Source of the DNA: an uncultured delta proteobacterium
GTDB taxonomy: Bacteria; Desulfobacterota; Desulfobacteria; Desulfobacterales; JAHEIW01
Reading direction: 5' to 3'
Assembly: GCA_963706575.1 (NCBI GenBank)
Contig: CAVPNL010000006.1
Span: forward strand, 800,001-864,000
DNA: 64,000 nt
Shown here: piece after piece, positions 21,001 through 27,000 of the stretch
Layout: every line of letters begins with the position of its first letter
Position numbering within the stretch: the stretch's first letter is position 1
Position numbers: made by a program

Positions 21001-24000
21001 CTGTTCCCAGCACCATGGGCACATGGCCGAAAATCGGCAGCGGGCAATCCAGCGCATTATAGAGAAGGATTTGCTTGGGGGTATTCATCACGTGATCATC
21101 GCCGCGGATAACGGTGTTCACCTGCATGGTCATATCGTCGATCACCACGGCATAATTATAGGTGGGAATACCGTCGCTGCGGCACAGAATAAAATCATCC
21201 AGTTCATCATTTTGAAATACGATGTTGCCTTTGATCACATCTTCAATAACGGTTGTCCCGCTTAAAGGCGCTTTAAACCGTATCACCGCCCCGGGCGTTT
21301 TCGATAGTTCTTTATCGCGACAGGTGCCGTCATATTTCGGTTTGCCGCCGGTGGCCATGGCTTTTTGGCGCATGGCCTCAATCTCATCGGGCGAACAGGT
21401 GCAATAGTAGGCCCGGCCGGAATCGATGAGGCGTTCCAGATAGTCGCTGTAAATATCGAGGCGTTTGGTTTGATAGTAAGGACCTTCATCCCAGTCGATA
21501 CCCAGCCATTCAAGCGCTTCAAAAATAACGTCTATGGCCTCCTGGGTCGAGCGTTCGGTGTCGGTATCTTCGATACGCAAAATAAATTTTCCTTTCATGC
21601 GGCGGGCGTACAACCAGTTAAAGATAGCGGTACGCGCATTGCCGACATGCATGAAGCCGGTGGGGCTGGGTGGAAATCGTGTCACAACTGAATCATTTTT
21701 TATTTCCGCAATCATTTTAGCATTCACCTTTGTTTTGCCTACAAGCGTTTAATGAGTAAACTGTTAAGTAATTTTTAAAGCGCCGATTATCTGATCATCA
21801 ATATAAGATCTTGATTTGTTGATAAATTAATAATATAAATGAATTTACGAATCAATATCTAAGCCCTGTGCTGAGTAAGTAAATCAAACTTGTCAAGGAT
21901 TCTAATAATTTAGGTTGTTCGGCCGCTGGGATCTGCCGCTGAAAAACGATCGTGCTGTAACTTGGCTTCCGGAGATCGCCGTATTTTAGTATAAATTTAA
22001 TAAAATTAGATAGTTGTTTAGAATCAACAGCCATTTTGGGGGTGGTGCATTTCAATAACACAGAAGATTGTCAAGCACAAGAGAACAAATGGCAAAAAAC
22101 CGATGAAAACACTTGACAATCGTTTCAAGATAAATTACTAGAAGCGCAACCTTAAATCTAGGTCGATTAAATTAAAATAAATATAGAATTCAGATTGTTA
22201 GGAGATTACTTATGGCAGTTCCGAAACGGAAGAAATCAAAATCGAAGCGCGATAAGCGACGAACTCACCAAAAACTTACCGCAGTAAATACAGCCACTTG
22301 CCCGGAGTGTGGCGAAGCCACCCTGCCGCACCATGCATGCCCCAACTGTGGGTATTACAAGGGCCGTAAGGTCGTCGAAACCGAAGAAGACTAGTCTTTT
22401 ATTCCACAGTTAACAATTCAAATTTCAAAAGGACAGAATTCAATGACCTCAGACAGGATGCCGACGGAAGGTGAACTTTACGGGTTGGATCCGGAATCCA
22501 GGCAGATGGTTCTGGATACGGTGGCACAGCTAAAAAAGCGTCTGCTGACACCGGAAAAAATTTTTGAATTTGATCGTGAAGAGATATTTCCTGAAGATAC
22601 CATTCGTGAAATGCTGGGCCCTGAAATTGGACTGCAGCTTTTGATGATCCCTGAAGAATATGGCGGTCTGGGTGGCGGTGCCCGTGACAGCTGCGCCATC
22701 ACCCGGGACATGGCCAAAATATGCCTGGGCATTACGACCGCGTTTTTTGCGATTCAACTGGGTGCGGATCCGATCATCGTCGGCGGCACCGAAGAGCAAA
22801 AACACAAATGGCTCGGGAAAATCGCCGCTGGAGAAGCACTTGTGGCTTACGCGGTAACCGAACCGGATGCCGGCAGCAATGTGGCTTCCATAAAAACCAA
22901 AGCCGATCCGGTTTTAAATGATGCCGGAGAAATCACCGGATATAAGATAAACGGCGCCAAGCAATTTATTTCCACCGGCGGATACGCTGAATTCATCACG
23001 CTGCTGGCCAACACCCCCGAGGGGGCCACCTTTTTTATCGTTGAAAAAGACACCGAGGGTTATATTCGCGGAAAAGGTGAAGAAAAGCATGGAATCCGGG
23101 CTTCAAATACGTCGCCGCTGACATTTACCGATGCTTTTGTGCCGGTGGAAAACATCATTGGCGGTGTAACCGGGCAGGGGCTCAAACAGGCCAGCAAGGT
23201 ATTCGGGTATACCCGGCTGATGGTGGCTTCGATGGCGCTGGGCGGCGGCGAATCCGCCCTGGATATCGTCATTCCGTATGCCAAGGAACGGATTCAATTT
23301 AAAACGCCGCTGTCGGAAAAACAGGGCTACACCCACAAGCTGGTTGTACCGCATGCCGTTCGGCTGGCGGCGGCCGCAAATTACATTGATGAGGTGGCCA
23401 TAAGATTGGATGCCCGCGAGCATGACCTCGAAGTCGAGGGTTCCATCGCCAAGCTGTTTGCAACCGAAACCGCCAACAAGGCTGCCGATGATGCCATGCA
23501 GGCTTTAGGCGGATACGGCTATATCACCGAATATGGCATTGAAAAAATAAAAAGAGATGTCAAAATTACCTGTATTTACGAGGGTACCAGTGAAATCCAG
23601 CAAAACATCATCAGTACCTTTCGCTGGAAAAAAACGCGGAAAACAAAAGGGGCCTTTTACGAAAGTCTGGCCGATGAAATGGATAAGCTCGAAGCCCAGT
23701 GCGGCGAGGCCGGATGCCGCTATATCGCCCTGGCGGCCCGTGCGTTAAACAAAACCGTTTTTTTGGTGAATGATAATCGACTGACCCGGGAACAGTATGT
23801 CATGTTTGCCCTGGCCGACATGATGATGCATGTGGAGGTGGCAGCCAGTCTGGTGCGGCAGGCAGCTGCAGTTAGCAGTGAAAATAATCCGGAGGCCGAG
23901 AAAACATGCCTTTTCTCACGCCTGTTCGCCCATGAAGCTGCCGAACTGGTATCCGCTAATATATTAAAAATATTGAGGGGTTCCGGCGTTTTTGAACCCG

Positions 24001-27000
24001 AGCAGGTATCGGCCTTTCTGGCGGAAACCTCGCACGCAGCCCTGGCGGATAGCTACCAGAACATCATTCCGGACATGAACCGCGCAGCTGACATTATATT
24101 TGATCGTTAACCATTGCCCCAATTGAGTAAAAACCGAATTGGGCGTTATCGTTTTTTCGTTTTTCGTTATTTGTTAATCGTTTAAAAGGGAGGCAAAATT
24201 GCGATTCGAAAACAAAGTGGTGATGGTTACCGGAGGAGCCGCTGGAATCGGTCTGGTCACGGCTGAAAACTTTGCCAACGAGGGCGCCAGGGTTGCGATT
24301 TGCGACGTCAACCCGGAAGCGGGAGAAGCTGCAGCAAAGGCACTGGGCTCCGAAGCCTCTTTCGAACAGGTCGACGTTGCCAGCAGTGCGGCCGTATCCG
24401 GCTGGATAGAGGGCGTTTTTGAAAAATACGGGCAAATTGATGTGATGGTTAACAATGCCGGGATCACGCGCGACGGTCTCATCATGCGCATGAAGGAGGA
24501 AGACTGGGATGCGGTGATCAGCGTCAACCTCAAAAGCGCATTTAACTGCATCAAGGCTGTTTCCAAGATAATGGTCAAGCAGCGTTCGGGCAGGATTATC
24601 AATCTGGCTTCGGTCGTAGGGGTGATGGGCAATCCCGGTCAGGCCAATTATGTGGCCTCAAAGGCCGGTATGATTGGTCTTACCAAAACGGTGGCCAAGG
24701 AACTTGGCGCCAGAGGCATTACCGTAAACGCCGTTGCACCGGGTTTTATCGAAACCGATATGACAGCTGTGCTGTCTGACAAAGTCAAAGAGGCCATGCT
24801 GGCTACGATACCTTTACAAAGAGCCGGCAGCCCCCAGGATGTGGCTGATGCCATTACATTTCTGGCTTCAGACCAGGCGGCTTATATTACCGGTCAGGTC
24901 ATACACGTCACCGGAGGGATGTACATGTAAAAGCGGATTCAAAAATTCATCTCGCACCAAATAGCCGCGTTCCGCTCCGGCAAAAAATGCTCACGTACTG
25001 CCGTGTACGCTCCGCTTTTTTTCCGGAGCGCGCCTTGCTCTTTGGCACGATCTAAAATTTTGAATCCGCTTTTAGAAGTTTTAAAACGGCCATCTTTTGA
25101 CCGAATACGGCGTTGCGCGAAGGAGAAAACCGCTAACGTACCAAATGTACGCGGCGCGATTTTCTCCTTCCCGCGCCTTGTCTTCGGCCAAAACCTGACC
25201 GTTTAAAAGCCAATTCACATTGATTAACAGTTTTTTAAACTGAACTTGCAATTACAATTATTTTTGACCGGCTTTGGCCGGTAAGGAGGAAATGAGATGT
25301 CTGTTGAGGAGAAAGTAAAAAAGATCATTGCTGAAAAACTGAGCGTTGAATTGGAAGAAGTTGTTCCTGAAGCCTCATTCGTGGATGATTTGGGGGCAGA
25401 TTCACTTGATCTCGTCGAGTTGATTATGTCCATGGAAGAGGAATTTGATACGGAAATTTCTGACGAAGATGCCGAGCAAATTACCACGGTTCAGGACGCC
25501 ATCGATTACGTTAATAAACAGTAGGCATCCATTTTTATATCAAATTTTGTGTAAGTATCGGCTAACAGCATCGTTCTGCTGCTCAAACAAGGAGGTCTTT
25601 TGAACAGGCGGGTCGTCGTTACAGGTATGGGATTAATTACCCCGGTTGGGATTGGAGTCGAGGACAGCTGGTCGGCTATCTGCGCCGGTAAATCGGGCGT
25701 ATCTGAAATAACTCAATTCGACGCATCGGCGTATCAGACCCGAATTGCCGCTGAGGTAAAGGGGTTTAATGCCGAAGATTTCATGCCCAAAAAAGATGCC
25801 AAACGCAACGAGCTGTTTATATCGTATGCAATGGCAGCAACGCGTATGGCACTGGAAGATTCCGGTCTGAAGATCAACAGCGCCAATGCAAACCGTATCG
25901 GTGTGGTTACCGGCTGCGGCCTTGGCGGCCTTGGAATTATGGAAGATACGATTCTCAATGTTGCCACCAAAGGTCCCCGGCGGGTGAGCCCGTTTTTTAT
26001 TCCCATGATGATCGGCAATATGGCACCGGGAATGATTTCCATCCACTTTGGAGCCAAAGGCCCGAATTTGTCCCTTGCCACTGCTTGTGCGGCCGGCGCA
26101 CATGCGATTGGCGACTCCTTTCAAATGATTCAAAACGGTCGCGTCGATGCCATGATTACCGGCGGAACCGAGGCGGTGGTTTCACCGACCGCTATTGCCG
26201 GTTTCAACGCCATGAAAGCGCTCTCGACCCGCAACGATGAACCGCCAAAAAGCCTCACGGCCTTTTGAGCGGGATCGCGACGGTTTTGTGATTGGTGAAG
26301 GCAGCGGGATTTTGATCCTCGAAGCCCTTGATCATGCCCTGGAAAGAGGTGCCCATATCTATGCCGAGCTGGTGGGCTTCGGGCTGACCGGCGACGGTTA
26401 CCACATGACTTCGCCGTGTCCGGATGGCGACGGTGCGGTGCGCTGCATGCAGGCGGCCCTGGATGACGCCGGTATTGCTGCCGGGCAGGTGGATTACATC
26501 AATGCCCATGGCACTTCCACCGAGCTCAACGATCTGTACGAAACCCGGGCGGTGAAAACCGTATTTAAAGACCATGCCTATAAAGTGGCGATCAGCTCCA
26601 CCAAATCGATGACCGGTCATGTGCTGGGCGGCGCCGGCGGTATAGAGACGGTGTTCAGTGCCTTGAGTATCTATCACGATATGATCCCGCCCACCATTAA
26701 TTATGAGAATCCGGCGGAAGAATGCGATCTGGACTACGTGCCCAATGTTGCCCGCCAGAAGACGGTCAACGTGGCCATGACCAATTCTTTCGGTTTCGGC
26801 GGAACCAACGCCACGCTGATTTTGAGAAAATACACCGATCAATAGCCGCTCGTACGGCCTTTGATATTCACTCAAAAGCATCATATAAGGGATGTGGCAC
26901 AGAGCACACATAGAATTAATGGGTTTCAGGTGTCAGTGTTCAGGTGTCAGCAAAAAGATGACGGGAGACGAAAAAAGAATTAAGATTTGACGCTTCTTCT

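Follow-up and report, generated by a model that had tools for sequence, protein, structure and literature searches.

In the window, a stretch of 64,000 nucleotides from an uncultured delta proteobacterium, a gene of the acyl-CoA dehydrogenase (ACAD) family lies inside the operon for fatty acid synthesis, and comparisons across 121 genomes of the order, 90 of them at least 90% complete, show that much of Desulfobacterales has inherited it vertically, in one copy per genome, as a core gene of the rpmF-fabG-acpP-fabF operon. We tentatively favour the view that its product is linked to ETF and works on ACP-bound chains, with enoyl-ACP reductase as the best candidate activity. Because this ACAD is strongly conserved in the operon, and in some genomes is the sole ACAD or occurs without a known enoyl reductase, it may stand for a step of a new type in the synthesis of bacterial lipids. 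The literature that we searched holds no description of an ACAD within a core fab operon, in agreement with what an earlier note on this DNA had stated.

Gene calls and domains confirmed the order rpmF - ACAD - fabG - acpP - fabF given in that note. The glutamate--tRNA ligase gene gltX (20291..21727, minus strand; TIGR00464, 543.5 bits) lies upstream and divergent, a position that is conserved in at least 49 of 80 species-genome loci and also in several of loci L001-L020. The operon itself, entirely on the plus strand, starts with rpmF for ribosomal protein L32 (22212..22394; PF01783 Ribosomal_L32p, 97.9 bits), followed by the gene for the 555-aa ACAD-family flavoprotein (22443..24110), fabG for 3-oxoacyl-ACP reductase (24199..24930; TIGR01830, 330.6 bits, above the cut-off of 297.75), acpP for the acyl carrier protein (25297..25524; PF00550, 60.2 bits; 68% identity to E. 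coli AcpP) and fabF for KAS II (25600..26845), which the assembly splits into two frames. No plus-strand terminator-like site was found between rpmF and acpP, and the hairpin after fabF (27117..27145, plus strand), with an 11-bp stem and then a T run, is the likely end of the operon.

Orthologs of the ACAD, defined by at least 60% identity, occur once per genome in 71 of the 121 order genomes (ACAD+, as opposed to 50 ACAD-), with identities of 60-85% and a partial copy in G024; the next-best ACAD matches reach at most 42%. Counting the species-genome loci with enough flank, rpmF is directly upstream in 66 of 74 and fabG directly downstream in 75 of 76, which upholds the previous claim that the gene is a conserved member of the operon. 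The ACAD is better conserved (68-85%) than FabG at the same loci (55-66% outside the genus). A FabF ortholog is present in 70 of the 71 ACAD+ genomes, and relatives devoid of the ACAD read rpmF-fabG-acpP-fabF.

The window ACAD has the architecture of very long-chain enzymes (VLCAD) with an intact catalytic glutamate, and Pfam, alignment and the AF2 model all bear out the 555-aa protein with a YEGT glutamate and an extra C-terminal domain that had been described. Acyl-CoA_dh_N/M/1 cover aa 18-391, the core fold (22494..23615, plus strand), which shows 38-39% identity to MCAD. The protein carries the motif KITCIYEGTSEIQ; the IYEGT of MCAD aligns with the site of Glu380, catalytic in IYEGTSE, and Y379, E380 and G381 are invariant across 35 sequences. 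Further on there is a second Acyl-CoA_dh_1 stretch, which recurs in the orthologs, and the C-terminal domain (aa ~404-555; 23652..24107, plus strand) is helical, with pLDDT above 90 for the helices of aa 404-552 in a model of pLDDT 92. This domain aligns through the C-terminus with relatives from other lineages, including a cluster with Holophagales/Thermoanaerobaculia-named members, and is homologous throughout the family.

In Foldseek, the best full-length folds were those of VLCAD-type enzymes (human VLCAD 7S7G/3B96, ACAD9 8PHE, B. anthracis 3OWA and Thermus 2Z1Q; TM 0.76-0.82 over ~550-600 columns), which share the N/M/C fold, the extra C-terminal helical domain and the glutamate in YEGT, but are only 24-28% identical to the window ACAD. 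Likewise, the alignment of the protein to the Bacillus FadE model NF058590 covers 24-535 of the 586 model positions, but the score is 238 bits against a cut-off of 600. It passes the cut-off of no NCBIfam model, its best match being the acryloyl-CoA reductase AcrC (284 bits, cut-off 640).

These likenesses of fold and sequence would suit a conventional long-chain acyl-CoA dehydrogenase that serves lipid turnover or the breakdown of fatty acids; its gene would merely have come to lie next to rpmF in some ancestor and been kept there by operon inertia or shared lipid-homeostasis regulation. The host is rich in ETFs and ACAD paralogs (~25), and homologs from other orders, 51-56% identical, have mla genes and a DSHCT helicase as neighbours where fab genes might have been looked for; these orders belong to the phylum of the host. 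We nevertheless regard this explanation as very unlikely. In G051 and G104 (98% complete each), the two stretches of the long ACAD are the sole Acyl-CoA_dh_1 matches, and 3HCDH_N (3-hydroxyacyl-CoA dehydrogenase) was not found in either of them or in G022. The gene is strictly single copy and conserved above FabG, it lies in the rpmF-fab operon and not among fad genes, the scores of its product stay well short of all curated cut-offs for acyl-CoA dehydrogenases, and in two further lineages an ACAD adjoins ACP-dependent synthases. ETF alpha is kept in the five genomes checked, with a conserved etfB-etfA-miaB-like arrangement around it in all four examined. Since the ACAD is the only one in two genomes without detected 3HCDH, and since relatives in other lineages lie beside ACP-dependent synthases, the data tie the gene to lipid synthesis rather than beta-oxidation, and so speak against the stray beta-oxidation gene that the earlier note had raised as an alternative.

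The first of these lineages comprises G007 and G082, from two other families, which do not have the long ACAD and read rpmF - 386-aa ACAD - etfB - etfA - fabG - acpP - fabF. The 386-aa protein is closest to Bcd of the C. difficile Bcd/Etf complex (429 bits). EtfB of this type scores 210-243 bits against CarD, LctB and the Etf small/beta subunits of 7KOE, 5OL2 and 4KPU, which we take to be bifurcating, versus 93-106 bits against human, Paracoccus and Methylophilus ETF, and EtfA matches CarE over its full length (378 bits), a match that takes in the region where ferredoxin-type chains match as well; the pair is of the electron-bifurcating type. Characterised Bcd/Etf- and Car-type complexes reduce enoyl-CoA. 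The window ACAD belongs to the same family as Bcd/EtfAB and caffeyl-CoA reductase CarCDE (5OL2, 4KPU/4L1F, 6FAH), with 210 bits to 5OL2_C and 176 to CarC, but it is 170 aa longer, VLCAD-like and without adjacent etf genes, and the ACP thioester that we propose for it is not a known substrate there.

The second is a sister clade, with named members in Holophagales/Thermoanaerobaculia, whose representative is 49% identical to the window ACAD and has the same C-terminal domain. Among 80 metagenome loci fetched with this representative, the ACAD gene immediately precedes a PfaA-like KS-AT megasynthase in 74, EtfA is directly upstream of the ACAD in 44, and a CCG/4Fe-4S oxidoreductase precedes EtfA in 33. 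Unlinked orthologs of this oxidoreductase-EtfBA set (56-67% identity) exist in G059 and G023.

We infer that the substrates of the window ACAD would be acyl or enoyl thioesters bound to AcpP, the product of its neighbour gene, rather than the CoA esters of beta-oxidation, and that the enzyme would exchange electrons with an ETF encoded elsewhere. The most likely direction would be from trans-2-enoyl-ACP to acyl-ACP, the enoyl-ACP reductase step of type II synthesis, in which it would replace or work alongside FabK/FabI; electrons might reach it via ETF from NADH, as in Bcd/Etf and CarCDE, or from a menaquinol-linked Fe-S oxidoreductase/EtfBA. If this is true, the enzyme would define a further, ETF-dependent class of enoyl-ACP reductase, sharing the reaction but no sequence relation with FabI and FabL (SDR), FabK (NMO/FMN) and FabV.

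Reduction fits better than FabX-like desaturation because known enoyl reductases are missing from several genomes and because Bcd with a bifurcating-type Etf occupies the same slot in two families. With FabK-like proteins counted at E<=1e-60 and FabI over its cut-off, neither was found in 36 of 71 ACAD+ versus 10 of 34 ACAD-/FabF+ genomes; related genomes are not independent, and therefore this and the other ACAD+/ACAD- cross-tabulations overstate association. At relaxed thresholds, G059 (2 contigs, 97%), G023 (100%) and G103 (100%) gave NMO matches of at most 36 bits and no FabI at 1e-30; FabL over its cut-off was absent from G059 and G023, and fabG itself was the only SDR match of G023, although homology is not enough to exclude SDR-type reductases and FabV was searched for without a positive control. 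A C4-type FabK ortholog occurs in 9 of 71 ACAD+ versus 20 of 50 ACAD- genomes.

Several observations count against the reductase reading. FabK-like genes are present in 33 of the 71 ACAD+ genomes, including the host, so that the ACAD could not be the sole reductase everywhere. The census is leaky, because four of seven re-examined ACAD+ genomes without FabK/FabI (G014, G099, G097 and G048) yield, at relaxed thresholds, a distantly related NMO protein (~376 aa, 148-197 bits). Two ACAD-less genomes with the plain operon (G056 and G062) have no clear FabI/FabK either, and an unrecognised enoyl reductase may therefore exist throughout the order. The window operon contains no etf gene, ETF of the L209-type is found in 96 of 121 genomes regardless of the ACAD and is missing from some ACAD+ genomes, and the 51-56% identical homologs lie off fab loci. 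In addition, ACADs known to act on carrier-protein thioesters are dehydrogenases, not reductases.

This last point favours the role preferred in the earlier note, that of an acyl-ACP dehydrogenase/isomerase for oxygen-independent unsaturated fatty acids, which would convert medium-chain acyl-ACP to trans-2-enoyl-ACP, and perhaps on to the cis-3 isomer, and pass electrons through ETF to menaquinone, in the manner of FabX. We consider it possible but doubtful. Operon membership and the evidence against beta-oxidation apply to it equally, and the classical FabA equivalog was over its cut-off in none of the 121 order genomes, which leaves the route to unsaturated acids open. The EtfBA plus CCG/Fe-S oxidoreductase arrangement that precedes the sister-clade ACAD is known from oxidative acyl-CoA metabolism of anaerobes. 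Secondary-metabolism ACADs that dehydrogenate carrier-bound acyl chains also exist: MbtN, RedW and PigA, of the same superfamily, act on carrier-tethered acyl/aminoacyl groups, but they are ~380 aa long, have no C-terminal domain and sit in biosynthetic gene clusters instead of the core fab operon, and the window ACAD scores 32, 172 and 154 bits against their cut-offs of 700, 650 and 500. However, oxidation of acyl thioesters by menaquinone is uphill by redox potentials, and the fold of FabX is of the FMN/NMO type. Helicobacter pylori FabX is described as a flavoenzyme with a [4Fe-4S] cluster that dehydrogenates acyl-ACP within FAS II (PMC8626469), an example of backtracking dehydrogenation in nature. 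Since FabX is an FMN/[4Fe-4S] enzyme of a different protein family, any resemblance would be functional only; the window ACAD has ACAD domains only, with neither a FabX-family match nor an NMO domain. Nor do the distributions complement each other: only 7 of 121 genomes, both ACAD+ and ACAD-, have a stand-alone FabA-like protein (151-166 bits), and PfaC-like DH domains are near-universal in both. Desaturation would also leave unexplained the missing known enoyl reductase of G059, G023 and G103, and the Bcd with bifurcating-type Etf in the same slot, all of which the reductase reading accommodates better.

It is quite unlikely, in our view, that the ACAD is a housekeeping ETF-linked enzyme for some other ACP- or CoA-bound lipid intermediate, for example one that serves in trans, as reductase or dehydrogenase, the Pfa-like megasynthases often found in the order, or one that modifies special lipids. 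The sister clade is indeed fixed to a PfaA-like gene, PfaC-like ORFs carrying FabA-type DH domains account for most of the matches, which came from 91 of 121 order genomes, and G059 and G023 have such ORFs without an NMO (PfaD-type) reductase. Yet the Desulfobacterales gene is always with fabG-acpP-fabF and was never seen at a pfa-like locus, and the host's genus keeps the ACAD with no PfaC-like FabA-DH match, which points to a link to FAS II and not to Pfa-type synthases alone.

The ACAD had also been said to fill the plsX slot. This holds for position only, because plsX, fabH and fabD are missing from the operon with or without the ACAD; a functional link to PlsX loss is not supported, since 50 PlsX-less genomes are also without the ACAD. 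PlsX (PF02504) had no match in the host genome (91.8% complete) or, as expected from the earlier note, in any of the 121 order genomes, including the 90 of at least 90% completeness, with a control search positive in 9 of 14 genomes. Its absence is a separate, order-wide trait that the ACAD does not explain. DegV/FakB was not found in the host genome either, and PlsY is kept there, as reported (G000:C8:167695-168129, 144.7 bits).

The long fabG-acpP spacer harbours a nested palindromic repeat element (24923..25174, no strand) with inverted repeats I1, I2 and I3 and no Rfam match; its contig depth is several-fold above that of the flanks in four of four runs, with loose ends at 24984/25018. The two frames of fabF (25600-26268 and 26237-26845) match halves 1-216 and 213-407 of TIGR03150 and break near 26244. 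In three of four runs the contigs of related organisms do not have the one base at 26244, whose absence would preserve the fabF frame, and the break has the look of either an indel of the assembly or a lesion specific to the strain.

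Gene calls and domain matches in the window bear out the gene order rpmF-ACAD-fabG-acpP-fabF described in an earlier note, in which a gene for a 555-aa flavoprotein of the acyl-CoA dehydrogenase family (hereafter the long ACAD; 22443-24110) lies between rpmF (22212-22394) and fabG (24199-24930), followed by acpP (25297-25524) and fabF (25600-26845, read in two frames in this assembly), all on the plus strand. The upstream neighbour of the operon is gltX (20291-21727, minus strand), and 3′ of fabF we found a terminator-like hairpin (27117-27145), the sole convincing one on the plus strand. 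Genes encoding a dCMP deaminase and NrdR follow, as do genes of riboflavin synthesis. The spacers within the operon are short, apart from the 366 bp that separate fabG from acpP. Contigs from RNA libraries of related organisms (88-99% likeness) span the ACAD, which does not prove its transcription, and one of them (X15 record 9, 22221-22515) joins rpmF to the ACAD, which is likewise not proof of a single transcript.

This arrangement is highly conserved. Among 121 genomes evenly drawn from the Desulfobacterales, 74 contained ACAD matches at E<=1e-60, and 71 of these had a single ortholog with 60-85% identity (one of them a contig-end fragment); in the remaining three, the best ACAD matches reached 37-42% identity only. 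In the first 20 loci that we inspected, rpmF was upstream in 17, two loci (L005 and L012) stop at a contig edge, and one (L016) has ca. 800 bp upstream of the ACAD with no rpmF match; a fabG-type gene was downstream in all 20, in one case (L004) as a weak match of 39%. Identity in these loci was higher for the ACAD (68-85%) than for FabG (55-66%, outside the genus). From the genomes of named species we then examined another 80 loci, labelled as Desulfobacterales, deltaproteobacterial, Thermodesulfobacteriota or unspecifically (Proteobacteria, uncultured bacterium), with Desulfatibacillum, Desulfococcus, Desulfonema, Desulfatitalea and Desulfatirhabdium among the genus names. Where the flanks were sufficient, rpmF was directly upstream in 66 of 74 and fabG directly downstream in 75 of 76, and the complete gltX / rpmF-ACAD-fabG-acpP-fabF arrangement was present in 49 of the 80.

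The long ACAD contains the motif KITCIYEGTSEIQ and, as previously noted, three Pfam domains that occupy aa 18-391 plus a second Acyl-CoA_dh_1 stretch; Acyl-CoA_dh_N, _M and _1 scored 76.7, 65.8 and 152.7 bits, compared to gathering cut-offs of 22.9, 33.3 and 22.4. It is 38-39% identical to MCAD, and its IYEGTSEIQ pairs with IYEGTAQIQ of the latter, with the catalytic-base glutamate at the position of MCAD Glu376; Y379, E380 and G381 are invariant in 35 sequences. An AlphaFold model built on a 35-row alignment had a pLDDT of 92, with the C-terminal helices (404-552) above 90, and its best full-length Foldseek matches were human VLCAD, Bacillus anthracis 3OWA, Thermus thermophilus 2Z1Q and ACAD9 (TM 0.76-0.82), whereas structures of ca. 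380-aa ACADs align with the core of the model only. The protein thus has the extra C-terminal helical domain (ca. 150-180 aa, packed on the core) of the VLCAD-type ACADs. This domain is homologous across a wider family, in which Y-E-G-T is invariant and that comprises a cluster of 49% identity with members named Holophagales/Thermoanaerobaculia, other representatives of 44-46% and one Armatimonadota protein. In all, the fab operon does include the long ACAD as a single-copy core member, and the protein is a catalytically intact VLCAD-type ACAD.

None of the curated NCBIfam models was passed by the long ACAD. Its best match, acryloyl-CoA reductase AcrC (NF042972), scored 284.4 bits against a cut-off of 640; the FadE models of Bacillus (NF058590) and Escherichia coli (NF038187) gave 238.1 and 50 bits, under cut-offs of 600 and 1300, and the carrier-protein-dependent ACADs MbtN, RedW and PigA were also under theirs (32/700, 172.5/650 and 154.3/500 bits). 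Domain searches did not find in it the SDR, NMO or FabV domains of FabI/FabL/FabK/FabV. It also differs from FabX, a [4Fe-4S]-containing enzyme according to PMC8626469, because Pfam identifies ACAD domains only and not the FabX-type fold with its cluster. Bcd/EtfAB and CarCDE combine a ca. 380-aa ACAD with adjoining bifurcating-type etfB and etfA genes, unlike the long ACAD: there is no etf gene in the window operon, nor within 5 kb in 80 loci. MCAD Gln95 and Glu99 pair with Thr98 and Phe102, and we judged these pocket residues too weak a guide to chain length. A single co-folding job with AcpP (35-row and 30-row alignments for ACAD and AcpP, respectively) gave a score of 0.01 and a mark of 0.32, which speaks neither for nor against binding.

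The earlier note had also placed this gene in the slot of plsX. Nevertheless, the long ACAD does not stand in for PlsX, since relatives without it equally lack plsX, fabH and fabD at this site: their operons read rpmF-fabG-acpP-fabF (G005, G034, G056 and G062), rpmF-fabG-(acpP)-rpiB-glyA (G019 and G027), rpmF-fabF (G026) or rpmF-rpiB (G037). The absence of PlsX itself was confirmed, with no PF02504 match in the window organism's genome or in any of the 121 order genomes (90 of them at least 90% complete) and with positive controls, and this FA_synthesis domain is not found in the long ACAD either. PlsY is indeed present (G000:C8:167695-168129), and no DegV/FakB was found in the same genome. 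The order-wide loss of PlsX, with PlsY retained, is a matter separate from the long ACAD and bears on the source of the acyl-phosphate for PlsY. The fabH and fabD genes of this genome are located outside the rpmF operon.

In 80 metagenome loci fetched with a 49%-identical representative of a sister clade, a PfaA-like KS-AT megasynthase (>1640 aa) is directly downstream of the ACAD in 74; EtfA is directly upstream, with EtfB before it, in 44, and a CCG/4Fe-4S oxidoreductase precedes EtfBA in 33, while five loci have a FabH-like gene upstream instead. Orthologs of this oxidoreductase-EtfBA set (56-67% identity) occur unlinked in two Desulfobacterales genomes (G059 and G023). The stand-alone EtfB copies of G023 scored similarly against bifurcating and non-bifurcating references (97-152 bits), and co-occurrence was uninformative for identifying an ETF partner, since an EtfA of the type seen in locus L209 is present in 96 of the 121 genomes irrespective of the ACAD. 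Outside the order, homologs of 51-56% identity were detected in eight of 243 sampled genomes of the phylum, with no rpmF or fab gene within 1.5 kb; in five of these loci viewed more widely (including L225, L226, L227 and L228), a DEAD/DSHCT (Ski2-like) helicase gene is downstream in four and mlaD-mlaC-mlaA upstream in two.

Two genomes from different families that lack the long ACAD, G007 and G082, carry a different insert in the same slot, with the order rpmF-ACAD-etfB-etfA-fabG-acpP-fabF (L229, G007:C36, 4800-8235; L230, G082:C82, 2001-6867). Their 385/386-aa ACAD is closest to Bcd of the Clostridioides difficile Bcd/Etf complex (429 bits) and does show the Bcd/CarCDE-type organization. With bifurcating proteins (CarD, LctB and the small or beta Etf subunits of 7KOE, 5OL2 and 4KPU), the accompanying EtfB reached 210-243 bits, compared with 93-106 bits for the ETFs of human, Paracoccus and Methylophilus, and EtfA aligns with CarE over its full length (378 bits), its N-terminal region also matching ferredoxin-type chains. 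Complexes of the Bcd/Etf and CarCDE types couple the NADH-driven reduction of enoyl-CoA to the reduction of ferredoxin. This bifurcating-type reductase module in a fab operon merits its own report.

In bacterial fatty acid synthesis, the pull step falls to enoyl-ACP reductase, a classical drug target with four known families; many anaerobes have none assigned. FabI was discarded as the reductase of the order, being over cut-off in only four of the 121 genomes, three of them with the long ACAD, and thus showing no pattern. FabK-like proteins (E<=1e-60) are present in 67 genomes, none over the strict cut-off; 33 genomes have both ACAD and FabK-like proteins, 38 the ACAD alone, 34 FabK-like proteins alone and 16 neither. 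The FabK-like copies of the window organism adjoin CoA-transferase/ligase and crotonase genes. With FabF orthologs in 104 of the 121 genomes, neither FabK-like proteins nor FabI were found in 36 of 71 ACAD-containing genomes, 10 of 34 with FabF and no ACAD (G007 and G082 among them) and five of 16 with neither ACAD nor FabF. Orthologs of the C4-type FabK occur in 9 of 71 genomes with the ACAD versus 20 of 50 without it. With relaxed thresholds, G059, G023 and G103 showed no NMO match above 36 bits and no FabI at 1e-30, and the first two no FabL-type match over cut-off. A FabV (PF12241) search was empty but so was its positive control, and it is not usable as evidence of absence. The census is suggestive and not clean, because four ACAD-containing genomes (G014, G099, G097 and G048) have a distant NMO protein of ca. 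376 aa and the plain-operon, ACAD-less G056 and G062 also lack a clear enoyl reductase; besides, related genomes are not independent.

Our tentative preference, short of an even chance, is that the long ACAD is an enoyl-ACP reductase. Three contexts, each independent of the others, suggest through guilt by association that it may work on AcpP-bound intermediates; the adjacency of etfBA in the sister clade, and the retention of ETF where it is the sole ACAD, suggest that it may use ETF; and it would convert enoyl-ACP to acyl-ACP. This direction is supported by the missing reductases of G059, G023 and G103, by the partial anticorrelation with the C4-type FabK and by the presence of a Bcd with a bifurcating-type Etf in the same slot in G007 and G082. 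Another housekeeping role linked to ACP is, in our estimation, quite unlikely. That this VLCAD-type protein is an ordinary acyl-CoA dehydrogenase appears similarly improbable, and the caveat that it might be a stray beta-oxidation gene does not hold, because the long ACAD is retained where beta-oxidation is absent. The window organism says little in this respect, because it encodes ca. 25 ACAD paralogs. In G051 and G104 (both 98% complete), Acyl-CoA_dh_1 matches no gene other than the rpmF-linked one, which accounts for two stretches, and 3HCDH_N (FadB/Hbd-type) had no match in these two genomes or in G022. ETF alpha was encoded in all five genomes checked; in the four examined, the etfB-etfA-miaB-like order around it is conserved and no dehydrogenase adjoins it. 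These lineages have therefore kept the ACAD and ETF without beta-oxidation.

The desaturase proposed in the earlier note, an acyl-ACP dehydrogenase, is in our view unlikely, although less so than the previous two; membership in the operon speaks for it as much as for the reductase, and the FabA and PfaC data neither favour nor exclude it. No FabA equivalog exceeded its cut-off in the 121 genomes, and with no equivalog in the sample we dropped FabA/FabB complementarity with the ACAD. Stand-alone FabA-like proteins (151-166 bits) occur in seven genomes, from both the ACAD-containing and ACAD-less groups, and most other FabA-type matches are tandem DH domains in PfaC-like ORFs of ca. 2300 aa, which are present in most of the order and were not found in the genus of the window organism.

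On the broader view, which we regard as possible and slightly more doubtful than the reductase assignment itself, ACAD plus ETF would serve the Desulfobacterales, and also a soil clade that has synthases of the Pfa type, as a further, unrecognised class of enoyl-ACP reductase; in G007 and G082 the partner would be a bifurcating, CarDE-like Etf, so that ferredoxin would be reduced in each elongation cycle and the formation of membrane lipids would conserve energy in energy-starved anaerobes. If the reductase reading is correct, it would fill the enoyl-reductase gap of abundant marine sulfate reducers and connect the making of lipids with pools of ETF, quinone or ferredoxin rather than with NAD(P)H alone, a link that would bear on the interpretation of lipid hydrogen isotopes, and the Bcd/bifurcating-Etf variant would represent energy conservation within an anabolic pathway. 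A desaturating acyl-ACP dehydrogenase would instead allow FabA-less bacteria to form unsaturated fatty acids without oxygen. In the full-text literature covered, which leaves out most subscription journals and is thus not proof of novelty, we found neither an ACAD in a core fab operon nor an ETF-dependent enoyl-ACP reductase; work on acyl-ACP dehydrogenase found there deals mainly with secondary metabolism, besides unrelated microbiome and genome surveys.

At E<=1e-90, no ortholog of FabF was found in 17 of the 121 genomes, including the closed or near-closed G027, G037, G067 and G073, and the ACAD is missing from 16 of these 17 too. In G037 (L131, G037:C3:3850000-3869000) and G056, an NMO-type ER domain is part of ORFs of 3934 and 3981 aa. 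Megasynthases, and not FAS II, may supply the fatty acids in some members of the order. The FabB-like KAS of the window organism belongs to an aryl-polyene-like lipid cluster (G000:C12:148800-172000; L039 and L040), which contains a KR, three KS/CLF, two ACPs, an ApeI-like dehydratase, a thioesterase, LolA-like and MMPL proteins, a phytoene-desaturase-like flavoprotein, GT2/DUF2062, a lipid A acyltransferase-like protein, PagL and three B12-binding radical SAM genes.

The window (G000:C6:800001-864000) comes from an assembly of 5.67 Mb in 25 contigs (completeness 91.8%, contamination 6.4%), which contains several irregularities. The fabF frame breaks near 26244 (26216-26268), where contigs of related organisms from three of four runs (X1, X15 and X18) have one base fewer and a single fabF frame; the split probably reflects an indel in the assembly. 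Further genes that look broken are found as KS fragments on C12, and ribD (28280-29379) is possibly another. FabH matches at G000:C17:40191-41165 and C22:63750-64724 have the same score and identity, and these contigs are probably duplicated or redundant, consistent with the contamination estimate. An Rfam search of 21700-27300 gave zero matches, including for the nested palindromes of the fabG-acpP spacer (24923-25174). These consist of outer arms of 43 nt each (24923-24965 and 25037-25079) and inner arms (24973-24987 and 25016-25030), followed by a second hairpin (25115-25174). In each of the four runs, metagenome contigs over the palindromes reached 5-10 times the depth of the flanks, and loose ends were numerous at 24984/25018. 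The palindromes have the look of a repeat or mobile element that is small and widespread; the stretch 26856-27000, 3′ of fabF, is likewise strongly over-represented among metagenome contigs.
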